A stretch of 64,000 nucleotides of DNA from an uncultured Candidatus Saccharibacteria bacterium (GTDB lineage: Bacteria > Patescibacteriota > UBA1384 > DTJR01): NCBI GenBank assembly GCA_964580065.1, contig CAZOJE010000001.1, positions 23,717 through 87,716 of the forward strand, written 5' to 3'. A program made the position numbers and the translations under genes. The notes below the pieces were generated by a model. The model was not told where the DNA came from and did not search any database. It was given only the letters and a program-made list of their open reading frames with translations. Below, piece after piece: positions 181 through 56,226 of this stretch. Positions within the stretch are counted from its first letter, which is position 1. Every line of letters begins with the position of its first letter.

Positions 181-2373
181 ATGAAATATAAAATCCACAA
201 AAGATCGATCATTCTCTCGTCGCTGGCAATCGCTCTAATTGCCACTCTTGGCATTTCCTTGCTTTATAAAACCAAGAAAGCTGACGCGGTAGCTATAAAC
301 TTGGCTGGACGAGCCCAAATTTTAAACACAAACGGCTACCTTAACTTCACCGATTACTCTGCCAATGTCACAACTTCCAATATCAGCTGCACTTTCGACG
401 GCTATGGCTGGTCTTCTGATATCGGTTGGGTGGCTTTTGGCACGAGTAATAATCTCGACGGCCCCGTAACCTGTGATTTGACAACCGGCATTCTCTCGGG
501 GAAAGCCAGCATCATAAATGATGGCTCAATCATTGATTTTAACGTCGATCCATATCATAGCAATGTCCGTATCCTTTCTTCCGGTGACTTTACCGGTTAT
601 GCTTGGTCAACGACACTCGGCTGGATCAATTTCACCGGTGTTTCAGCCCCAGGAATGATCATCGGCCCTACTTCAAGCTCAACTTCCTCGCCAACAACCA
701 CTGATACGATTTTCACCGAGCCGGCTCCAGTTGATACAACTTCAAGCCCAACACCTGCTTCAAGTCTAACTTCCTCATCAGCGACTAGCACAATTTTCAC
801 CGATCCGGCTCCTGTTGCCATGACTAAAAAAGAAATAATTGAGTTGCCTGACTTCAAATTTTATTTTGTTTTAGAAAATGGAAATCTTGAGGTCAAAATA
901 AATGGCGAAAAAGATTTTGAGCTGGTAAAAAACTCCGAGCTTTTAATTGGGATTCCAGCTGATATTTTTGCCAAGGAAGTCAATGCTATCACCATCACTA
1001 CTGCCGATTCTTCTTATCCGATGAATTTTTTGGCTGACAAAAACAAATATCAGGCAGTCATTTCCGTACCCCAAAAAGGCGAATGCGAACTGCGTATCCT
1101 AATAGCTTACAAAGACGACACAATTCAGGAAATTAAAAAAACTATCCTCGTCGACCCTCAAGGTTATATTTTTACTAAAAGCTCTTCTTATTTCGGTTTA
1201 GGCAGAAAGCAAGAAATGAGAATTGAAGGCGCGGAAGTTACTCTTTATAAGCTTGAAAACGGTGAGTTCCAAAAATGGGATGCCAAGGAATTTAAGCAAA
1301 ATAATCCGGTTATTTCCGACCAGTCGGGGGAATACTCATTTTTTGTGCCCAACGGTGAATACTATTTAGAGGTCAAAAAAAGTGGCTACCGAGACAAGAA
1401 AAGCGATAATTTTAAAGTGGAAAATCAGGTTCTCAACAAAAATATTGAGCTTGAACCCAATATCAAGCCCTGGATTTGGGCAGTGATTATGGCTGTTTTA
1501 GCCGGAATTGTTTTGGTTTTTTTATTGATGAGAAAAAAATTTATATTGAAAATTAAAAAAGGAGTTCGTATGAAAAAACTAATTACTATCCTTGTCAGTG
1601 CAATAGTTTTAGCAACCGGAGTTTTGGTTGGCTCCAGTTATGTCTTGGCTGAACAGTCGGGTTCTTCACCCGAGTCTGGTGTTACAAGTTATTTCAAAGC
1701 CACTTACGACTCGATTGTGGCGCTTTCACACGGTTCGGTTGCAGCCGGCGCTTGGGGCGACTGGGGTGCTTACTGGAACCGAATCAGATCGGCCGCTGAA
1801 TGGGTGCCGTCTGGCGATGCAGCCGTCACCGACGTTGTGTCGGGCAAAACTTTTTACAAAGATTCCCGAACCAAAGCCACTGGAACCAAACTAGTGGTCG
1901 GCCCTTGCCCAACACAGGCCTATCACGACTCGCATGCTTTAGCTACTGCTCAAAATAACTGCTCTCAAACATGGGAAAGCGAAACAAGTGTTACCGGTTC
2001 AGAAAAAAAAGATCCTGTCACCGGTTTAATCTGGAGTAACTTGCTGGTAAATAACGCCGGCACTGTGGCTTTCAGCCCAAGCACTAACTCCACTTGGAGC
2101 TGGGACGCTTCGGCTGCTGCTAACGTGGCGGTTGGCAATAAAACAGCTTCACAGCTTTGTAGCGAACGCGGAGATGGTTGGCGCTTACCAATGCAGAAGG
2201 AGTTAATGCAGGCCTACATTGATGGTTCGACATGGAATCTGACTCAGTCTGCCAACTTCTTTTGGTCAGCTACGGAGACATATAGCACGCTCGCTTGGTA
2301 CGTGACCTTGAATACTGGCCTCACGCTCAGCACCGATAAGACGACTGTGTATCAGTTACGTTGTGTCAGGTAA
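181..2373 (+). CDS. secreted/membrane protein: signal peptide, GW-type repeats, CarboxypepD_reg-like beta-sandwich, TM helix, then a second signal-peptide-like segment and a C-terminal DUF1566 (Lcl C-terminal) domain; possibly two genes fused
   Basis: N-terminal hydrophobic leader. Repeated GYGWSSDIGWVAFG / GYAWSTTLGWINFTG motifs. GEYSFFVPNGEYYLEVKKSGY matches the carboxypeptidase-regulatory fold. C-terminus TGLIWS...GWRLP..EL...FWSAT...VYQLRCVR matches DUF1566. An internal MKKLITILVSAIVLATGVLVG sits after a TM helix at about nt 1570, with AAGGAG 5 nt upstream. Confidence 0.55.
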   Translation: MKYKIHKRSIILSSLAIALIATLGISLLYKTKKADAVAINLAGRAQILNTNGYLNFTDYSANVTTSNISCTFDGYGWSSDIGWVAFGTSNNLDGPVTCDLTTGILSGKASIINDGSIIDFNVDPYHSNVRILSSGDFTGYAWSTTLGWINFTGVSAPGMIIGPTSSSTSSPTTTDTIFTEPAPVDTTSSPTPASSLTSSSATSTIFTDPAPVAMTKKEIIELPDFKFYFVLENGNLEVKINGEKDFELVKNSELLIGIPADIFAKEVNAITITTADSSYPMNFLADKNKYQAVISVPQKGECELRILIAYKDDTIQEIKKTILVDPQGYIFTKSSSYFGLGRKQEMRIEGAEVTLYKLENGEFQKWDAKEFKQNNPVISDQSGEYSFFVPNGEYYLEVKKSGYRDKKSDNFKVENQVLNKNIELEPNIKPWIWAVIMAVLAGIVLVFLLMRKKFILKIKKGVRMKKLITILVSAIVLATGVLVGSSYVLAEQSGSSPESGVTSYFKATYDSIVALSHGSVAAGAWGDWGAYWNRIRSAAEWVPSGDAAVTDVVSGKTFYKDSRTKATGTKLVVGPCPTQAYHDSHALATAQNNCSQTWESETSVTGSEKKDPVTGLIWSNLLVNNAGTVAFSPSTNSTWSWDASAAANVAVGNKTASQLCSERGDGWRLPMQKELMQAYIDGSTWNLTQSANFFWSATETYSTLAWYVTLNTGLTLSTDKTTVYQLRCVR

Positions 2374-2434
2374 CTCCGTGAGGTAAACCCCATTTAATGG
2401 GGATGCCTTTCTTTGGCTGAAATGATGCCATACT

Positions 2435-11928: not shown

Positions 11929-12100
11929 TGCCTAAACCTTAGAAATTTTCTAAGGCATGGCATAAAATCCTTCGCAGATAATGAGCTCGTCGTCAGAGCA
12001 TCTGCGAAGGTTGTGATCCGAAAGGATTGCAGGTAGCCGTAAAAAGCTATCGCTGGCGGCGGGCTTTTTGTATCCGCTTCCGGTTAATCGAGGCAAGAAA

Positions 12101-51317: not shown

Positions 51318-52184
51318 ATGCCCGAATTGCCCGAAGTAGAAATCATCAAAAGAGGTCTCGAACAAAAGATTATTGGCAGAACCATTGCCTCTGTTGATGT
51401 ACGCGAGAGTAAAATTTTTCAGGGTAGAAAAGAAGATGTAGTTGACTCTAAAATTATTAACATCAAGCGGCGGGCCAAGATGATTGTGATAGAACTATCT
51501 AACCAAAAAAGTCTTTTAATCCATTTGAAAATGACCGGTCAGCTTATTTTCGATCGCAAACCAAACGACAAAACTACTCGGACGGCTGGTGGACATCCGT
51601 CTAAAGATTGGGTGGCTGATTTACCAAGTCAATTCACGAGAGTGATTTTTGTTTTTACAGATGGAAGCGTTTTGTATTTTAACGATTTGCGTAAATTCGG
51701 CTATATTAAAGTCTATAAAAGCTCTGAAATTGATGATCTCAAAGTTTTGCGTGAGCTTGGGCCGGAGCCATTTGATAAAGAATTTACGGCGGAATATTTA
51801 TTACGCTGTTGTGATAAAAAACCGCGAACAAAAATAAAACAACTTTTAATTGATCAAACGATAATTTCGGGCGTTGGTAATATATACGCCGATGAGTCGC
51901 TTTTTTGCGCCCATATTTCGCCTCTGCGGTTAGGGCGCGATATTAAATTATCGGAATTAAGAAAGATTGCAGAATGTGTCAAAGAAGTTTTAACGAAAGC
52001 GCTTAAAATGGGCGGTTCAAGCGAAAATACTTTTGTCGACGTTGAAGGAAAAAGGGGACAAATGCAAAACCATTTTTTGGTATATCGTCAAACAGGAAGA
52101 AATTGTCCGAATGGCTGTGGAAAAATAATGAGAACGACTGTGGGAGGCAGAGGAACGCATTATTGCCCAATTTGCCAAGTTTAA
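51318..52184 (+). CDS. mutM: formamidopyrimidine-DNA glycosylase
   Basis: N-terminal MPELPEVE. H2TH region. C-terminal zinc finger CPNGCG...C..C. Confidence 0.9.
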   Translation: MPELPEVEIIKRGLEQKIIGRTIASVDVRESKIFQGRKEDVVDSKIINIKRRAKMIVIELSNQKSLLIHLKMTGQLIFDRKPNDKTTRTAGGHPSKDWVADLPSQFTRVIFVFTDGSVLYFNDLRKFGYIKVYKSSEIDDLKVLRELGPEPFDKEFTAEYLLRCCDKKPRTKIKQLLIDQTIISGVGNIYADESLFCAHISPLRLGRDIKLSELRKIAECVKEVLTKALKMGGSSENTFVDVEGKRGQMQNHFLVYRQTGRNCPNGCGKIMRTTVGGRGTHYCPICQV

Positions 52185-52407
52185 TTAATTTGATAAGGAT
52201 AAAAAAACTGTTATTATAAAAATATGTTAACCGAATTAATAAATAAGACCTTTGCATATTGGTTTTTTACCGACTCTCACAGCCGGCGTTTTTAGTTATT
52301 TAAAATAATCAAAATAAATTTAGCCGGCTGAAGAGCCGGTTTTTTTGTGTTTAGCTGCTAACTTTCGATTTTCGAAGGTTGGCACATTGAACACAAGGGA
52401 GGCAGAA

Positions 52408-52593
52408 ATGGACGCTCAAGAGGTGTTCTTTAAAAGGGCGCTTGTCTGGATGCAAGCATTGGAGCGAGCAAAAATGTCGGGAATCCAGTCGTGGATAAAC
52501 GACTGTGAAGAACAGGTAAGAAGGGCAAAAGAAGAAGCCGAGAGAGCCGGCTACCCTGTACCGATTCAAGAAGTGCCCAATCGCACCGCGTAA
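52408..52593 (+). CDS. small hypothetical protein (61 aa)
   Basis: GGGAGG SD before MDAQEVFF. Terminator downstream. Confidence 0.4.
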   Translation: MDAQEVFFKRALVWMQALERAKMSGIQSWINDCEEQVRRAKEEAERAGYPVPIQEVPNRTA

Positions 52594-52745
52594 CTGGTCT
52601 GCGTCGAATTTAGTTTGTTGAGAGGACCCTGCCTTTTGTGTTTTACGGGGTTGGATTTATTTGCAAGATCCAACCCTTATTTTTTTATTCAGCAATTTTG
52701 TCAAATCTAAGATGATTATTAGGCCTTGCGCTAACATAACGATTG

Positions 52746-52774
52746 TTGACCAGAGAAAAAATATTTGCTACGAT
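52746..52774 (+). promoter_or_regulatory. sigma-70-like promoter TTGACC-17 bp-TACGAT
   Basis: Both hexamers are a good match with canonical spacing. The putative +1 coincides with the ATG of a 27-codon ORF. Confidence 0.45.
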
Positions 52775-52781
52775 TTAACCG

Positions 52782-52865
52782 ATGAAAAACTTAGTTGCTA
52801 GCGCATTCGTATTATCGCTTGGTCTACTACTGGGCGACTCTTTACCTTTGCGGCGGGCACGCTGA
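52782..52865 (+). CDS. putative leaderless small hydrophobic peptide (27 aa, MKNLVASAFVLSLGLLLGDSLPLRRAR); could instead be a small RNA
   Basis: ATG about 7 nt downstream of the -10. The ORF is followed by a terminator. Confidence 0.25.
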   Translation: MKNLVASAFVLSLGLLLGDSLPLRRAR

Positions 52866-52894
52866 GTTTTTAGCACCTTTCAATCAATAAATAG

Positions 52895-52920
52895 AAAAGC
52901 CCCGTCGCAAGACGGGGTTT
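52895..52920 (+). terminator. Rho-independent terminator (AAAAGCCCCGTC-GCAA-GACGGGGTTTTTC)
   Basis: Stem CCCCGTC/GACGGGG followed by a T-run. Confidence 0.7.
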
Positions 52921-52999
52921 TTCTATTCCCTTTCATTTTTGGGCGTTCCTGCCTTTGTCGTATTTACTGCAAGGGCGCGACGCGCCCAAAAAGGAGAAA

Positions 53000-53380
53000 A
53001 TGAGAATGAACGAGTTTACTTTGGACGGAGCATGGATGAACGGCAATCAAACGTTTGCCGTCAGAGTGAGGACTCTCGATGGCATCGTCGTATCTGACGC
53101 TGCATCTAGCTCAAACTTGTTCGAAGCTATATCGAAGGCGTTCCAAAGAACGACGGGGGTTGACTTTTCGATCACATCTCTTGTGGTCGATTCGAGGTTC
53201 GAGAGCAACTCCGTGTCGTTCAAAGTCCATCTTTCTGTTGTTGCTGATGGGTTTTGGATGGCGAAAACCGAAGGAGAATCCAGCAACTTGGTCGAAGCGA
53301 TAGCGAGCGCGGCTTTGGCCGGTGTCAACATGCGTCTTCGGTACACTGCGGCCGCTCCAGCACCCGCTTCAGTTGCCTAG
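53000..53380 (+). CDS. hypothetical protein with an internal duplication (SSSNLFEAISKA / ESSNLVEAIASA)
   Basis: AAGGAG SD. Two repeated half-domains. Moderately GC-richer than surrounding genes. Confidence 0.45.
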   Translation: MRMNEFTLDGAWMNGNQTFAVRVRTLDGIVVSDAASSSNLFEAISKAFQRTTGVDFSITSLVVDSRFESNSVSFKVHLSVVADGFWMAKTEGESSNLVEAIASAALAGVNMRLRYTAAAPAPASVA

Positions 53381-53547
53381 TGTGGCAGCATCCGGGGCCT
53401 TGGCAGAATTTTCTGCCGAGGCCCTTGATCGTCAGGAGGGATTTTGATATTTTATATTCATATAAAATGTTTAGTTTAAACCAAAATATTATTGCTATCA
53501 TTATTACTCCGCCGACGCGGTGGTAGCTTAAAGTATCTTGAAAAACA

Positions 53548-53577
53548 AAGCTCCCGCCGCAAAACGGCGGTTTTTTT
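53548..53577 (+). terminator. Rho-independent terminator (CTCCCGCCGCAAAACGGCGG + TTTTTTT)
   Basis: GC stem followed by a T-run. Confidence 0.7.
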
Positions 53578-53645
53578 GTCTGCTGGATTGATCAAGAACG
53601 ACCATTTTTGGTCAGAATCAGCAGACAAAAAGGAGATGAAAGAAG

Positions 53646-53996
53646 ATGGGTGAAGTAACCGAAGGACTGGCCAACGAGCTGAAGCCGCTTTTTGAGAGGG
53701 GCGAGACTCTCATAGACAGCGAGGAGGAAAAGGCGCGTTTCTTGAAGGAAGCCAGGATTCTCTTCAGTGTAGAGATTCGCTGGGGACATTCTGCCGGTAG
53801 AGACTACTGGCTTCGTGCAGGTCATACCGAGTTCATCACATCTTGCGCCACCTCGCTGTCTCGCCAAGATGCCATTGGGAGGGCAATCTGGTGGCTAGAC
53901 AGAAAACCTTACTTCCAGTCGGAGTTCTTCAAAACCCATCGGAGTGAATTGCTTCAACACCCGGGGGTTCCTCTAATCCGTCGCGGGTTGATCTGA
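53646..53996 (+). CDS. hypothetical protein
   Basis: AAGGAG SD. 116-aa ORF. Terminator downstream at 54001-54035. Confidence 0.4.
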   Translation: MGEVTEGLANELKPLFERGETLIDSEEEKARFLKEARILFSVEIRWGHSAGRDYWLRAGHTEFITSCATSLSRQDAIGRAIWWLDRKPYFQSEFFKTHRSELLQHPGVPLIRRGLI

Positions 53997-54000
53997 CATT

Positions 54001-54035
54001 CCGGGCGGCCGCTTTTTGCGGCCGCCCTTTCTCTT
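54001..54035 (+). terminator. Rho-independent terminator (GGGCGGCCGC-TTTTT-GCGGCCGCCC)
   Basis: 10-bp palindromic GC stem. Confidence 0.65.
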
Positions 54036-54090
54036 ACTCCTTGATTCTGTTTACTCTTGTTTTTGTTATATTTTAGATTATATTTGAAAC

Positions 54091-54855
54091 ATGATTAACA
54101 ACAAAAAAGTTTTTGCAATTGTGATGGCGGGCGGCAAGGGCACGCGCATTGGCGCTACAGATTTTCCAAAAGTAATGTTTACCGTGGCGGACAAACCAAT
54201 TATTGAATGGGCTTTGCGGCCGTTGGAGCAGTTAAAAAAAGACGGCCTGATTGATCGCATTCTTGTTATCGTTGGTTTTAAAGGCGACAAAATTATTGAT
54301 TATCTCAAAGATCGTGTTGAATATGTTTGGCAAAAAGAACAGTTGGGAACGGCGCACGCTGTGCAAATGGCCGAAAATTTATTGGCTAACGAAGAAGGAA
54401 TTACAGTCATTGTCAACGGTGACCATGCCCTTTATTCAGCAGCTACTTATGAAAAAATGCTCAAAACTTATACTGACAAAGATTTGACGCTGGCATTTGC
54501 CACAGTTGAATCGGCTAGCCGTTTTGATTCTTACGGACGAGTGCTGCGCGGCGATAAAGGAGAAATAAAAGGTGTGGTGGAAGTTCCCGAAGCCACCGAG
54601 GCCGAGCTGAAAATAAAAGAAAAGAGTATCAATTTATACGCGGTTGACAATGAGTGGCTTTTTGGCGTTTTGCCGGACATTAAGCAAAGCGCGGCCAAAA
54701 AAGAATATTATATTGTGGATATTGTTAAAAAAGCTATTGATCAGGGCAAAAAAGTAGCAACGGTTGGAGTTGACGACGAGGACGAGGCCTTGGGCATTAA
54801 TACTTTAGACGACCGAGCGGAAGTTGAAGGAATTCTGCGCGCCAGACAATTTTAA
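54091..54855 (+). CDS. sugar-phosphate nucleotidyltransferase (GlmU N-terminal-domain-like; no acetyltransferase domain)
   Basis: AIVMAGGKGTRIG...QLGTAHAV matches the nucleotidyltransferase signature. Confidence 0.8.
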   Translation: MINNKKVFAIVMAGGKGTRIGATDFPKVMFTVADKPIIEWALRPLEQLKKDGLIDRILVIVGFKGDKIIDYLKDRVEYVWQKEQLGTAHAVQMAENLLANEEGITVIVNGDHALYSAATYEKMLKTYTDKDLTLAFATVESASRFDSYGRVLRGDKGEIKGVVEVPEATEAELKIKEKSINLYAVDNEWLFGVLPDIKQSAAKKEYYIVDIVKKAIDQGKKVATVGVDDEDEALGINTLDDRAEVEGILRARQF

Positions 54856-54932
54856 AAATTAGTGAGTTTCAGAATTTAATGCAACATTTTTGAGCTTTGT
54901 TTGTATTCTTTCAATAACTCGCTGATCTGATA

Positions 54933-54961
54933 TTGACAGTCTACCCTTATCGGGGTAGAAT
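54933..54961 (+). promoter_or_regulatory. strong sigma-70-like promoter TTGACA-17 bp-TAGAAT. The spacer contains the palindrome CTACCC..GGGTAG.
   Basis: Consensus -35 and a near-consensus -10 with 17-bp spacing, at the start of a 630-bp non-coding interval. Confidence 0.55.
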
Positions 54962-54967
54962 TTTAAA

Positions 54968-55466
54968 CGTGAATACAAACCTGACAATAGATCAAAAGCA
55001 AACAGCCATTTATTTTGGCAGTTTTTGCTTTTCTAAATGGATGACCGGAGAGCGGTTTTGAGGTAGAGATACATAATTTCCCCTCAAAACCGCTCCGCCC
55101 CACGGAGCGGTTTTATTTTGACAAGGGGGGTGGGACAGTGGCCGGCTTTACTTAGCCGCACATGGCTCTGCTTCTCTAGCAGAGCCGGGGGTCAGCCCCT
55201 TATAGCTGCGTTCGTTGAAAACGGGTTCGCCCGTGCACTTTTCAACCATGTTTCTTCCTTTTAGCCGACGTATGAAGCAAGGGGGAAGGTACGTCTAGGA
55301 CTTCGGTCCTCGGTTGATTCGTGCGATAGCGAGTGGGAAAGGGTCCGGGTCTCTGCCCTTCCCTTCGGCTTCGGCCGAAAAAAGAGACCCCCACGGGACG
55401 GTGAGGTTTCCGCCTCACCGTCCCGACCAGTTTACCAGACGAAGACCCCGTGGGTCTTTTTTTGTT
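54968..55466 (+). ncRNA. candidate structured non-coding transcript of about 500 nt (unidentified). It begins with an attenuator and contains UUCG tetraloop hairpins; a terminator closes it at the 3' end.
   Basis: No plausible ORF. GC-rich stem-loops include GGACTTCGGTCC, GGCTTCGGCC, GGGACGGTGAGG...CCTCACCGTCCC and GGCTCTGC...GCAGAGCC. A terminator (AGACCCCGTGGGTCTTTTTTT) at 55443-55466 closes the region. Does not match the RNase P, tmRNA or SRP consensus as I recall them. Confidence 0.3.
55045..55118 (+). promoter_or_regulatory. terminator/antiterminator-type alternative hairpins. Segment 1 CCGGAGAGCGGTTTTGAGG and segment 3 CGGAGCGGTTTT are both complementary to segment 2 CCTCAAAACCGCTCCG.
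   Basis: Pairing 1:2 is a 14-bp perfect stem. Pairing 2:3 is an 8-bp stem followed by a T-run (terminator). The two pairings are mutually exclusive. Confidence 0.45.
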
Positions 55467-55491
55467 GGAATTATTTGTTAACTTTTAATCA

Positions 55492-56226
55492 ATGAAATCT
55501 TATTCGACTTATGGCATTATCATTAAAAAAAGAAATTTTCTTGAAAAAGACCGGATTTTAACTATTTTTTCCCGAGATAGGGGAAAAATCGAGATTTTAT
55601 CCAAAGGTTGTCGTCGCCCGGGGTCGAAATTGTCCTATTGTTCGGATTTGGGTGTGGTCGGTAGATTTTTTCTCCATGCCGGCAAAAGTCTGGATATTTT
55701 AACGGATTTTCAGCCGATTTTTTATCCTCAAGAAATTACTGGCGATTATGAAAAAACTAATTTCATGGGTGCGATTTTTTCGATCGTCAACAAGCTTTTT
55801 GAGTTTGATCAGCCCCACCGTAAAACTTATGCGTTATTGTGCGAAATCGTGGAAAATTTGAACGAAACTTCGGTTAAATTGAACGGAGTTGTTTTTTGGG
55901 CTAAATTAAGCGAAGATTTGGGCATCAGGCCGAATTTAAACACTTGCCCTGTTTGCAAAGATAGCATCAATTCTCGGGACGATTTATGTTTCAATGAGGA
56001 AGGAGAGATTTTTCACCGCCATTGCCGCGATTTGAGCAGAAAAATTTCAACAGATGCGGTTAAGTTTATAAAATTACTTTTAGATAAAGACTTATTTTTT
56101 ATCCGGCGGATTAAAGCTAGTGCAAATGTTTTAACCGAAGCCGAGGATTATTTTGAAACATATTTTGTCTGGCATTTTGGTAAGATTATTAATGAAGCGA
56201 CATTAAGACATTTTCGGTTAATATGA
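55492..56226 (+). CDS. recO: DNA repair protein RecO
   Basis: N-terminal OB-fold region (YGIIIKKRNFLEKDRILTIFSRDRGKI) and a C-terminal C..C...H.C zinc motif. Confidence 0.75.
   Translation: MKSYSTYGIIIKKRNFLEKDRILTIFSRDRGKIEILSKGCRRPGSKLSYCSDLGVVGRFFLHAGKSLDILTDFQPIFYPQEITGDYEKTNFMGAIFSIVNKLFEFDQPHRKTYALLCEIVENLNETSVKLNGVVFWAKLSEDLGIRPNLNTCPVCKDSINSRDDLCFNEEGEIFHRHCRDLSRKISTDAVKFIKLLLDKDLFFIRRIKASANVLTEAEDYFETYFVWHFGKIINEATLRHFRLI

Follow-up and report, generated by a model that had tools for sequence, protein, structure and literature searches.

In the classical attenuators (trp, phe, his, thr, and ilv), a short translated leader ORF precedes an antiterminator hairpin and a terminator hairpin that compete for one strand and exclude each other, and a ribosome that arrives at the stop codon covers the antiterminator 5′ arm, so that the terminator forms. 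In the ermK, vmlR, and bmrCD leaders, a stalled or absent ribosome on the short ORF leads to antiterminator formation and induction of the downstream gene. In EutX/Rli55, a non-coding RNA is gated by an AdoCbl riboswitch. The Saccharibacteria-like lineage is not known to make amino acids and is presumed to get them from its host. To our knowledge, gene regulation has hardly been characterised in Saccharibacteria and other candidate-phyla-radiation bacteria, in which very few regulatory RNAs have been described, and no report of leader-peptide attenuation in them was found in full-text literature searches. Leaderless polycysteine short ORFs of mycobacteria are described as cysteine-responsive attenuators (bioRxiv 10.1101/834739), and rnTrpL of Sinorhizobium is described as an attenuator-derived small RNA whose read-through product is an mRNA (PMC6614838).

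The locus reported here is a 636-nt gap (positions 54856 to 55491) 5′ of recO in a Saccharibacteria-like genome; the whole stretch of 64,000 nt that was analysed is called the window. The gap was read, with a probability of about 0.65, as a separate transcription unit consisting of a strong sigma-70-type promoter, a short ORF of about 30 codons that begins at the predicted transcript start or a few nucleotides from it, a three-segment attenuator, and a cargo of about 320 nt with its own terminator. The features are as follows.

54933-54961, + strand: sigma-70-type promoter, with the -35 box TTGACA (54933-54938), a 17-nt spacer, and the -10 box TAGAAT (54956-54961)
54969-55061, + strand: predicted leaderless short ORF, with a GTG start, 30 codons, UGA at 55059-55061, and the peptide VNTNLTIDQKQTAIYFGSFCFSKWMTGERF followed by the stop
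54994-55032, + strand: hairpin in the short ORF, then a U-rich stretch (-12.8 kcal/mol, z = -2.9)
55050-55095, + strand: antiterminator hairpin P1, with the 5′ arm 55050-55063, the inner helix 55066-55070/55076-55080, and the 3′ arm 55082-55095
55086-55119, + strand: attenuator terminator, with the 12-bp stem 55086-55097/55103-55114, then UUUUAUUUU
55120-55440, + strand: cargo, a GC-rich non-coding RNA, with a purine-rich SD-like run (55124-55136), hairpin H2 (55164-55186), hairpin H3 (55187-55199), conserved AUAGC (55202-55206), a variable middle, a conserved 3′ hairpin (55394-55425), and ACCAGU
55299-55310 and 55368-55377, + strand: UUCG-loop hairpins
55441-55466, + strand: intrinsic terminator closing the unit, GAAGACCCCGUGGGUCUUU then a U run
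55476-55494, + strand: context, the extended -10-like TGtTAACTT, 7 nt, and the recO ATG (55492)

The unit shares with the classical attenuators a short leader ORF, exclusive hairpins with a common strand, a stop codon at which a ribosome would mask the antiterminator 5′ arm, and a possible pause hairpin in the ORF. Unlike them, it has three segments rather than four, an ORF predicted to be leaderless and lacking an SD, no regulatory codon run, and an output that is a non-coding RNA or orphan small ORF rather than a biosynthetic operon. It resembles the ermK, vmlR, and bmrCD leaders in having no amino-acid codon run, whereas those leaders have resistance-protein cargo and leader ORFs with an SD, and no drug-dependent arrest motif was identified here. 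The mycobacterial polycysteine ORFs, as they are described in the cited report, are also leaderless first cistrons whose translation status controls downstream expression, but they have Cys codon runs and protein-coding operon genes downstream, neither of which is found here, and the present unit differs from that description in its explicit intrinsic terminator/antiterminator pair and non-coding cargo. Like EutX/Rli55, the unit has a premature terminator 5′ of a conserved non-coding RNA with its own terminator. As in EutX/Rli55 and, on the published description, rnTrpL, a premature-termination switch would set the short or long form of the transcript, and the terminated leader may act as an sRNA. 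EutX/Rli55 senses through a ligand-binding aptamer, and the present unit most likely through a ribosome; the described read-through product of rnTrpL is an mRNA, whereas here it is a non-coding RNA in the window's clade.

Promoter and short ORF

The promoter proposed in the initial annotation of the gap (TTGACA-17-TAGAAT) is present, with 11 of 12 consensus matches, and is the top site within the 5 kb scanned. A promoter of the form cTTGACA-17-TAnnAT occupies the equivalent place in related loci. The same annotation saw no credible ORF, which is contradicted by a conserved 30-codon ORF at 54969 to 55061, the full frame of which was recognised from its promoter-proximal start by aligning the promoters of related loci. 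The GTG of this ORF is only 7 nt 3′ of the -10 box, and the ORF is therefore predicted to be leaderless. Across loci, the start codon lies 6 to 11 nt 3′ of the -10 box and 35 to 43 nt, mostly 38 to 39 nt, from the start of the -35 box (20 loci with the box correctly located). The start codon is GTG in the window and ATG in relatives. As an observation against the leaderless reading, GTG is a poor start codon for leaderless mRNA.

The homologous frame contains no stop across 22 related metagenomic loci, compared with 58 and 36 stops in the other two frames. The length of the ORF ranges from 23 to 34 codons (28 to 34 in all but one locus), and the variation is in whole codons. Substitutions by codon position are 26/37/46, and the changed codons include 20 synonymous and 54 non-synonymous ones. 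The predicted leader peptide is drifting in sequence rather than conserved, and such drift in a kept frame is expected if the act of translation, rather than its product, matters. No run of a single amino acid is conserved in the short ORF, in which only N/T/Q-richness near the N terminus recurs.

The hairpin at 54994 to 55032 has counterparts in most relatives, which at the equivalent place carry a small GC hairpin that differs in sequence and precedes a G/U-rich run. RNAalifold found no consensus pairs in the short-ORF region of a MAFFT alignment, because the small hairpins are out of register there. This element might conceivably be an RNA polymerase pause hairpin.

The switch and its sensor

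Segment 2 (55082 to 55097) pairs with segment 1 (55050 to 55063) in a perfect 14-bp stem, with a 5-bp inner helix, to form P1 (-27.2 kcal/mol, z = -8.2), or alternatively with segment 3 (55103 to 55114) to form the terminator (-19.9 kcal/mol, z = -7.4). The strand 55086 to 55095 is common to the P1 3′ arm and the terminator stem. The three-segment switch of the initial annotation was thus confirmed in both its stems, the second being 12 bp long. When the region upstream of recO was compared among relatives, both helices were found to covary, and the terminator/antiterminator decision structure read from the single sequence is real and conserved, with compensatory changes in both alternatives. 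In 20 loci, 93% of the P1 cells are paired, compared with 40 to 59% when the partner is slid; 12 of the 19 pairs are changed on both sides, a level of covariation that was reached in none of 500 shuffles. The corresponding values for the terminator are 92.7% and 43 to 59% (20 loci), and both partners have changed in 5 of its 11 pairs. P1 is more stable than the terminator and is still present when the free leader is folded to minimum energy, so termination would require that P1 be blocked.

The P1 5′ arm carries the last four codons and the stop of the short ORF. The ORF ends inside this arm in all 22 loci examined, with the stop codon at the identical position of the arm in 19 of 23 loci. The features of a ribosome-dependent attenuator found here are therefore an open leader ORF, exclusive helices that are both maintained, and a stop placed in the antiterminator 5′ arm; a run of codons for a sensed amino acid is absent from the short ORF. 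Because a conserved ORF runs from the predicted transcript start into the antiterminator 5′ arm in 22 of 22 loci, a leader-peptide attenuator is favoured over the novel riboswitch that had been suggested initially. The switch is probably a ribosome-dependent leader-peptide transcription attenuator that decides between termination and read-through into a non-coding RNA, and the sensor is most likely the translating ribosome rather than a ligand-binding aptamer.

The order of switching can be proposed from the geometry. A ribosome reaching the UGA would, judging from the size of the ribosome footprint, occupy the P1 5′ arm and thereby block P1, because the stop codon lies inside that arm. Segment 2 would then pair with segment 3, and transcription would stop at about 55119, giving a leader of about 150 nt. 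If no ribosome loads, or one stalls soon after the start of the ORF, P1, as the more stable hairpin, would form first and pre-empt the terminator, and RNA polymerase would continue into the cargo, giving a predicted read-through RNA of about 500 nt. Since P1 would form without a ribosome, read-through would signal failed or slow translation of the leaderless ORF. The earlier idea of one or two sRNAs in the gap comes near these two predicted RNAs.

The apex of P1 (GG-UAGAGAU..AUUUCC-CC) hardly varies among clades, in contrast to the freely covarying lower stem, and P1-like hairpins are repeated within the cargo of L078, L079, and L081, as decoy binding sites would be. The conservation of UAGAGAU..AUUUCC goes beyond the need of a plain antiterminator, and together with the P1-like cargo hairpins it could reflect a bound factor. 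If a metabolite or an RNA-binding protein acted on the apex to stabilise or destabilise P1, the ORF would be irrelevant to switching. However, P1 folds as a simple hairpin whose internal loop is 2-by-1 and whose terminal loop varies, without the junction or pocket typical of aptamers, and a stabilising ligand would add nothing because P1 by itself greatly exceeds the terminator in stability. Such a riboswitch or protein-dependent antiterminator would also leave unexplained the frame open in 22 of 22 loci, the fixed stop in the arm, and the fixed distance between start and promoter, and no Rfam family supports it; we regard it as unlikely. In the search for a metabolite riboswitch class, no Rfam match and no multi-helix junction or pocket were found, the simple hairpin being the only conserved element.

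The initial annotation found no fit to RNase P, tmRNA, SRP, or T-box RNAs, and the Rfam search that was run agrees with it, as does ARAGORN, neither program giving a match. No Rfam family was found in the interval, either in a search of the whole window at gathering thresholds or in one of positions 54700 to 55700 at E ≤ 10; the best sub-threshold match (E = 0.39) is confined to the terminator hairpin. Nothing was found in the homologous intervals of 15 related loci at E ≤ 0.1. The only related-loci output of interest consists of sub-threshold Phe_leader matches, which lie at a different upstream unit. In the window, Phe_leader (RF01859) scored 17.3 bits on 55002 to 55118 (E = 5.8), below its gathering threshold of 55. 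No T-box was matched at E ≤ 10 over 54700 to 55700, and P1 has no bulge carrying UGGN. A size of about 350 to 500 nt, a high GC content in an AT-rich genome, and a conserved genomic position would suit a divergent housekeeping RNA (RNase P RNA, tmRNA, SRP RNA, or 6S RNA) or a T-box leader. This identity is nevertheless very improbable, given no Rfam match at E ≤ 10 in the window or E ≤ 0.1 in the 15 related loci, no tRNA or tmRNA gene found by ARAGORN within the interval, the absence of the element at this locus in L004 to L006, and a middle region of 240 to 1100 nt that codes for protein in some clades.

The compensatory changes also bear on whether the gap holds one unit or two unrelated genes, that is, a micro-protein ORF with an ordinary terminator and a separate sRNA gene with its own promoter. 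Two genes might show what is seen here, namely a fairly conserved C terminus of the peptide ([VIM][IK]KK.G.R[FL]), a terminator immediately 3′ of the ORF, a TTGACA hexamer at 55119 to 55124, and an SD-like purine run beyond the terminator. Nevertheless, the conserved C-terminal codons encode the P1 arm, and their conservation is explained by RNA constraint on that arm, whereas the rest of the peptide has more non-synonymous than synonymous codon changes (54 versus 20). The internal TTGACA is followed by no -10 box and is not kept in relatives. The terminator 5′ arm covaries with P1, an upstream competitor for which an ordinary terminator would have no need. A two-gene arrangement is accordingly considered quite unlikely.

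The non-coding cargo and the boundary with recO

The cargo in the window's clade is conserved, non-coding, and under constraint. Relative to L003, a near-identical relative of the window, there is 1 change in the 636-nt gap compared with 41 changes in 2595 nt of flanking genes, and the sole gap change, C55171U, preserves a G-U pair in H2. H2, H3, and the 3′ hairpin are common to L007, L008, L009, and L067, with compensatory changes, and both strands of H2 and of the 3′ hairpin have changed among relatives with 49% RecO identity. Indels in the cargo between relatives are mostly not multiples of 3, and tblastx similarity occurs in all three frames. Attenuators with a non-coding RNA as the only cargo are unusual.

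The GC-rich helices noted initially are all present, including the two UUCG-loop hairpins, the long perfect stem at 55394 to 55425 (-29.5 kcal/mol), and the final terminator at 55441 to 55466. The cargo has a GC content of 0.55 to 0.58, compared with about 0.40 in the flanks. The description of the gap as highly structured holds for the full predicted transcript, the fold of which is more stable than dinucleotide shuffles (z = -5.9), but is overstated for the middle; the cargo alone has a z score of -2.1 in the window and of -0.8 to -6.6 in relatives, and its fold stability is in large part due to GC content.

In sister clades, the switch precedes orphan small-protein genes. L013 and L096 share a 105-aa cargo gene with substitutions of 23/27/60 by codon position, and L078 and L081 share a 107-aa cargo ORF. 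The middle region of the cargo is 240 to 1100 nt long among loci and protein-coding in some clades. A protein search with the 105-aa ORF matched only itself and one relative, and Pfam gave nothing significant for the cargo ORFs of relatives and neighbouring small ORFs. In a search for a cargo core common to all clades, blastn linked loci within clades only. A shared architecture, seen by eye only, runs from a closing helix through GCCAAAAA and a hairpin to the terminator. In the non-coding clades, an SD-like GGAGG and a mini-ORF of 2 to 5 codons follow the switch. An SD with a "Met-Leu-stop" mini-ORF where the cargo begins was considered as a second sensor and rejected; it shares sequence with one strand of a conserved helix and may be there by chance.

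The small ORFs behind the switch in sister clades (105 aa in L013/L096 and 107 aa in L078/L081), the GGAGG and mini-ORF as possible leftovers in the non-coding clades, and the modest fold z scores of the cargo would fit a genuine attenuator whose cargo in the window is a decaying small-protein gene without RNA function. This is improbable, as the flanking genes have changed more than the interval, H2, H3, and the 3′ hairpin persist through compensatory changes in relatives with RecO 49% identical, a distance at which neutral DNA would no longer be alignable, and the 3′ terminator is retained in every clade.

The initial annotation placed the structure upstream of recO, which is correct as a position but not as a recO leader, since the unit has its own terminator, a -10-like box precedes recO, and the element is absent in L004 to L006. 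A terminator lies at the matching 3′ position in all relatives read. In relatives, TGnTAnnnT or another -10-like box is found 6 to 9 nt 5′ of the recO ATG, and no SD is visible. Judging from these motifs, recO appears to be separately transcribed and leaderless. Because recO has its own -10 box and sits after the terminator, the best reading is that the attenuator unit does not control recO.

Distribution and neighbouring leader peptides

A covariance model of the switch matched the + strand just 5′ of recO in 17 of 80 loci of a RecO-based metagenome scan, and the switch is also found in six further loci retrieved earlier; this sample is phylogenetically narrow and non-independent, because RecO was the route to every locus. 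Loci with the switch have RecO proteins 36 to 97% identical to that of the window. In L004 to L006 (RecO 56% identical), the next closest relatives after L003, only 70 nt separate the same two genes, and the element is absent. A strict pattern scan of 185,579 species genomes returned 51 stretches, 50 of which are unrelated terminators of the AAAACCGC...GCGGTTTT type. The only real match is L039, an uncultured Candidatus Saccharibacteria genome, and the scan says little on distribution because the pattern is too strict for more distant clades. A scan of viral contigs for the switch gave no match, and thus nothing suggests a phage origin.

Just upstream in the window are two leader peptides of the same design that do carry codon runs of the classical kind, one aromatic-rich (FAYWFF) and one Ile-rich (IIAIII). 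The aromatic-rich peptide reads FWFYF in L008, L011/L012, L068, and L083 and FWFFF in L084, and the Ile-rich peptide (IIAIII) is also found in L008. Both leader ORFs begin 6 to 8 nt after a -10 box. We tentatively propose, as a possibility held at rather less than even odds, a translation-gated non-coding RNA, in which the ribosome on a leaderless mini-ORF would turn on a conserved structured RNA that is not an mRNA when translation falters. The unit would belong to a small island of leaderless attenuators, with the aromatic-rich and Ile-rich units, that may couple amino-acid or translation status to lineage-specific sRNAs and orphan small proteins in reduced, host-dependent bacteria.

The promoter, predicted leaderless short ORF, covarying terminator/antiterminator pair, and cargo form a testable regulatory module that recurs in many metagenomic relatives. 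If confirmed, it would represent ribosome-mediated attenuation built on leaderless translation, and its output would be either a non-coding RNA that is conserved or orphan small genes that are exchanged rapidly. A new RNA family could be founded on the covariance model of the switch and used to annotate these genomes, in which gene callers place spurious ORFs at this locus. In L007, a 136-aa reverse-strand ORF called across the gap is such a gene-caller artefact.

The interval upstream of recO

The interval 54856-55491 is the gap between a nucleotidyltransferase gene and recO, a gene order kept in relatives. It holds a unit consisting of a promoter, a short ORF, a three-segment switch, a downstream stretch termed here the cargo, and a terminator.

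Features of the interval and its flanking genes
54091-54855, nucleotidyltransferase gene (Pfam NTP_transferase, E = 1e-19)
54933-54961, + strand, promoter TTGACA-17-TAGAAT, the top promoter-like site in the 5 kb scanned
54969-55061, short ORF, from GTG to UGA (55059-61)
54994-55032, hairpin and U-rich run inside the short ORF (z = -2.9)
55050-63, 55082-97 and 55103-14, switch segments 1, 2 and 3
55120-55440, cargo
55441-55466, + strand, final terminator of the unit
55476-55494, + strand, extended -10-like TGtTAACTT, 7 nt before the recO ATG, with no SD
55492-56226, recO (RecO_N and RecO_C domains)

The cargo is a GC-rich stretch of ~320 nt with several hairpins, one of which (55394-55425) reaches -29.5 kcal/mol. 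The whole transcript folds better than its dinucleotide shuffles on the + strand (z = -5.9), and the minus strand of the interval also gives a good fold (z = -7.3); the unit was assigned to the + strand because the promoters and both U-runs read on that strand. Every element named in the initial annotation (promoter, three segments, GC-rich helices, and final terminator) was found, and its observation was largely correct, except that it missed the short ORF at 54969.

The Rfam check proposed in the initial annotation found no known family in the interval at gathering thresholds, and at an E value of ≤10 the best match was the rnk leader (E = 0.39), covering the terminator hairpin only. ARAGORN predicted neither a tRNA nor a tmRNA gene in this gap, and the homologous region of 15 related loci had no Rfam match at an E value of ≤0.1. 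Known RNA families are thus excluded for the interval. The terminator closes the unit in every locus read, and a -10-like box (TGnTAnnnT or other) lies 6 to 9 nt before the recO ATG in the loci read, with no SD, which indicates that recO probably has a transcript of its own, likewise leaderless. The sequence argues that the interval is not a recO leader, and a reading of it as an upstream regulator of recO is not supported.

The short ORF and the three-segment switch

Related loci were gathered via RecO homologues and a RecO-based metagenome scan. Their aligned upstream regions reveal a conserved cTTGACA-17-TAnnAT promoter and, 6 to 11 nt beyond the -10 box, a start codon that is also conserved (GTG in the window and ATG in relatives). 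The short ORF is present in every locus, with a length of 28 to 34 codons (23 in one locus), and its stop lies inside the 5' arm of P1, the antiterminator hairpin of segments 1 and 2, where 19 of 23 loci share one model position for it. The initial annotation saw no credible ORF here; over the span of the short ORF in 22 loci, however, the ORF frame contains no stops and the two other frames contain 58 and 36, and lengths differ among loci by whole codons. Among seven close pairs of equal ORF length and ≤35% nucleotide difference, substitutions at codon positions 1, 2, and 3 numbered 26, 37, and 46, with 20 of the changed codons being synonymous and 54 not. The peptide sequence (predicted in the window as VNTNLTIDQKQTAIYFGSFCFSKWMTGERF) is not conserved among loci. 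Its C terminus, ..KK.G.RF before the stop, is conserved; as the codons for it lie in the A-rich spacer and the P1 arm, RNA constraint accounts for its conservation. The short ORF has the sequence signature of a leader ORF, for which the act of translation would matter and the product would not. Judging from the promoter geometry, it would have to be translated leaderless, since there is no space for an SD.

P1 consists of a perfect 14-bp stem and a 5-bp inner helix (-27.2 kcal/mol), and the terminator formed by segments 2 and 3 is a 12-bp stem followed by UUUUAUUUU (-19.9 kcal/mol). Helix counts were made over 20 distinct loci, with the commonest pair as the reference. In P1, 93.0% of the cells were paired (slid controls, 40 to 59%) and 12 of 19 pairs were changed on both sides, although these values are somewhat biased toward P1, whose model guided the alignment. 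For the terminator helix, whose pairs lie outside that model, the values were 92.7% (slid controls, 43 to 59%) and 5 of 11 pairs. The observed covariation score was reached by 0 of 500 shuffles for either helix. In addition, changes of segment 2, as seen in L013, L072, and L081, are mirrored in both segment 1 and segment 3, a pattern that would not be expected unless both pairings are in use. The comparative evidence thus indicates that both alternative helices are real, in support of the attenuator-type decision structure proposed initially.

P1 lies upstream of the terminator, is more stable, and is still present when the free leader is folded to its minimum energy, so termination at 55119 would depend on P1 being kept from forming. 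A ribosome that has reached the UGA would sit over the 5' arm of P1, leaving segment 2 free and allowing the terminator to form; with the ribosome absent or stalled well upstream, P1 would form and transcription would go on. We infer this mechanism as a whole; its logic is like that of the trp attenuator, but the switch is cut down to three segments. The hairpin inside the short ORF has structural counterparts, differing in sequence, in most relatives, and it was not confirmed by RNAalifold on the available alignment; it may serve to pause the polymerase and keep it in step with the ribosome. The short ORF contains no codon run and shows only N/T/Q-richness in the first dozen codons. The simplest candidate signal is general translation capacity or the capacity for leaderless initiation.

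The best explanation is that a leaderless leader-peptide attenuator gates a conserved noncoding RNA, and the riboswitch suggested initially is not supported. The attenuation mechanism is known; the leaderless three-segment form, the noncoding or exchangeable cargo, and the host lineage distinguish this variant, and the element is unrepresented in Rfam. A full-text literature search found no description of leader-peptide attenuation for Saccharibacteria or the candidate-phyla-radiation group.

Distribution and cargo

A covariance model built from the three-segment switch matched 17 of the 80 scan loci (E values of 1e-22 to 1e-5) and six additional loci from outside the scan, in each case on the + strand and directly ahead of recO. 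A pattern scan of species-representative genomes yielded one true extra copy (L039) in an uncultured Candidatus Saccharibacteria genome, which indicates a Saccharibacteria-like lineage. The closest relatives after the near-identical L003 are L004 to L006 (RecO 56% identical), in which only 70 nt separate the nucleotidyltransferase gene and recO (1686-1757 in L004) and the covariance model found no switch. The whole unit was lost or never gained in this lineage, so that recO can evidently do without it.

The distance from switch to recO is 238 to 454 nt in most loci and 693 to 1120 nt in a few. The cargo has a G+C content of 0.47 to 0.60 across loci, versus ~0.40 in the flanks, and diverges so fast that blastn connects cargos within clades only. 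Some cargos are coding. In L013 and L096, the switch is followed by an orphan gene of 105 aa (2591-2908 and 1511-1828, respectively), in which substitutions show a clear third-position excess (23/27/60 by codon position); Pfam has no match for it, and its database members are these two only. Two other loci share a 107-aa ORF (L078, 1827-2150; L081, 2048-2371), and L072 has a possible 149-aa ORF (1874-2323), both without a Pfam family. A public gene call crosses the gap of L007 as a 136-aa reverse-strand ORF (2019-2429, minus strand). This call is probably spurious, since it covers the attenuator promoter and the GC-rich region upstream of it, unlike the 105-aa L013 call, which is a real gene.

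The clade of the window is among those with noncoding cargo. Between noncoding cargos, indels were non-triplet in 7 of 10, 8 of 14, 12 of 15, 9 of 13, and 16 of 20 cases in five pairs, and tblastx similarity occurred in all three frames, shifting along the sequence. Several comparisons point to constraint on the cargo in this clade. The window and L003 differ by 1 change in the 636-nt gap versus 41 in 2595 nt of flanking genes (~10 expected at the flanking rate), and this change, C55171U, preserves a G-U pair in hairpin H2. Relatives whose RecO is only 49% identical have, with compensatory changes, the same cargo elements: H2 (55164-86), H3 (55187-99), AUAGC, and a 3' hairpin with ACCAGU behind it (55394-55430). 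The cargo exceeds the folding expected from its composition only modestly (z = -2.1 for the window; -0.8 to -6.6 for other loci). Nearly every locus has a purine-rich SD-like run behind the switch; in the noncoding clades, the only ORF after this run is a mini-ORF of 2 to 5 codons, possibly incidental and overlapping with a helix strand. A few cargos (L078, 1534-1603; L081, 1520-1590; L079, cargo positions 17-56) start with a degenerate second P1 copy (..UUUUGAGAAGAAGAU..UUUUCUCCCAGAA..) without a terminator, which could be a tandem-duplication remnant or a decoy for a P1-binding factor.

Neighbouring units

More units of the same design lie in 52184-54090, the 1.9 kb that precede the nucleotidyltransferase gene.

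52190-52347, aromatic-rich unit, promoter TTGATA-16-TGtTATTAT at 52190-52217
53429-53577, Ile-rich unit

The former has a predicted leaderless 23-codon ORF (MLTELINKTFAYWFFTDSHSRRF) rich in aromatic residues, whose stop adjoins AGCCGGCG, a potential competitor of the terminator AGCCGGCUGAAGAGCCGGU7; farther downstream there is a 61-aa orphan ORF (52408-52593) preceded by an SD. The aromatic peptide (..FWFYFTD..; FWFFFAD in L084) was found again in L008, L011/L012, L068, L083, and L084, and Rfam Phe_leader matched this unit below threshold in L068 (E = 0.0013) and L008 (E = 0.024). The Ile-rich unit has a predicted leaderless 19-codon ORF (MFSLNQNIIAIIITPPTRW) with 5 Ile in 6 residues and a counterpart in L008 (MLSQNQTTIISIIITSPQRW), a four-segment trp-like attenuator (CCGCCG / CGCGGUGG / CCCGCCG / CGGCGG-U7), and, downstream, an SD and a 116-aa orphan ORF (53646-53996) without a Pfam match. 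Given these units and their recurring peptides, leaderless leader-peptide attenuation appears to be a recurrent device in the lineage.

In the same region, 52746-52927 comprises a promoter (TTGACC-17-TACGAT), a predicted leaderless ORF of 27 codons (MKNLVASAFVLSLGLLLGDSLPLRRAR), and a strong terminator (52890-52927); the hydrophobic product may be a small peptide that is secreted or resides in the membrane. Next comes an orphan ORF of 126 aa (53000-53380), which has an SD. Pfam offers a single hint for it, a weak, below-threshold match of almost full length to PF08502, the allosteric (leucine-binding) domain of LeuA (E = 0.0057). The small-ORF/attenuator island (52400-54000) and the cargo have a G+C content of 0.48 to 0.58, and the flanking housekeeping genes 0.34 to 0.45. 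Elsewhere in the window, the LOOT RNA family (RF03000) is matched over its full length at 11929-12051 (93.6 bits versus a threshold of 46.4).
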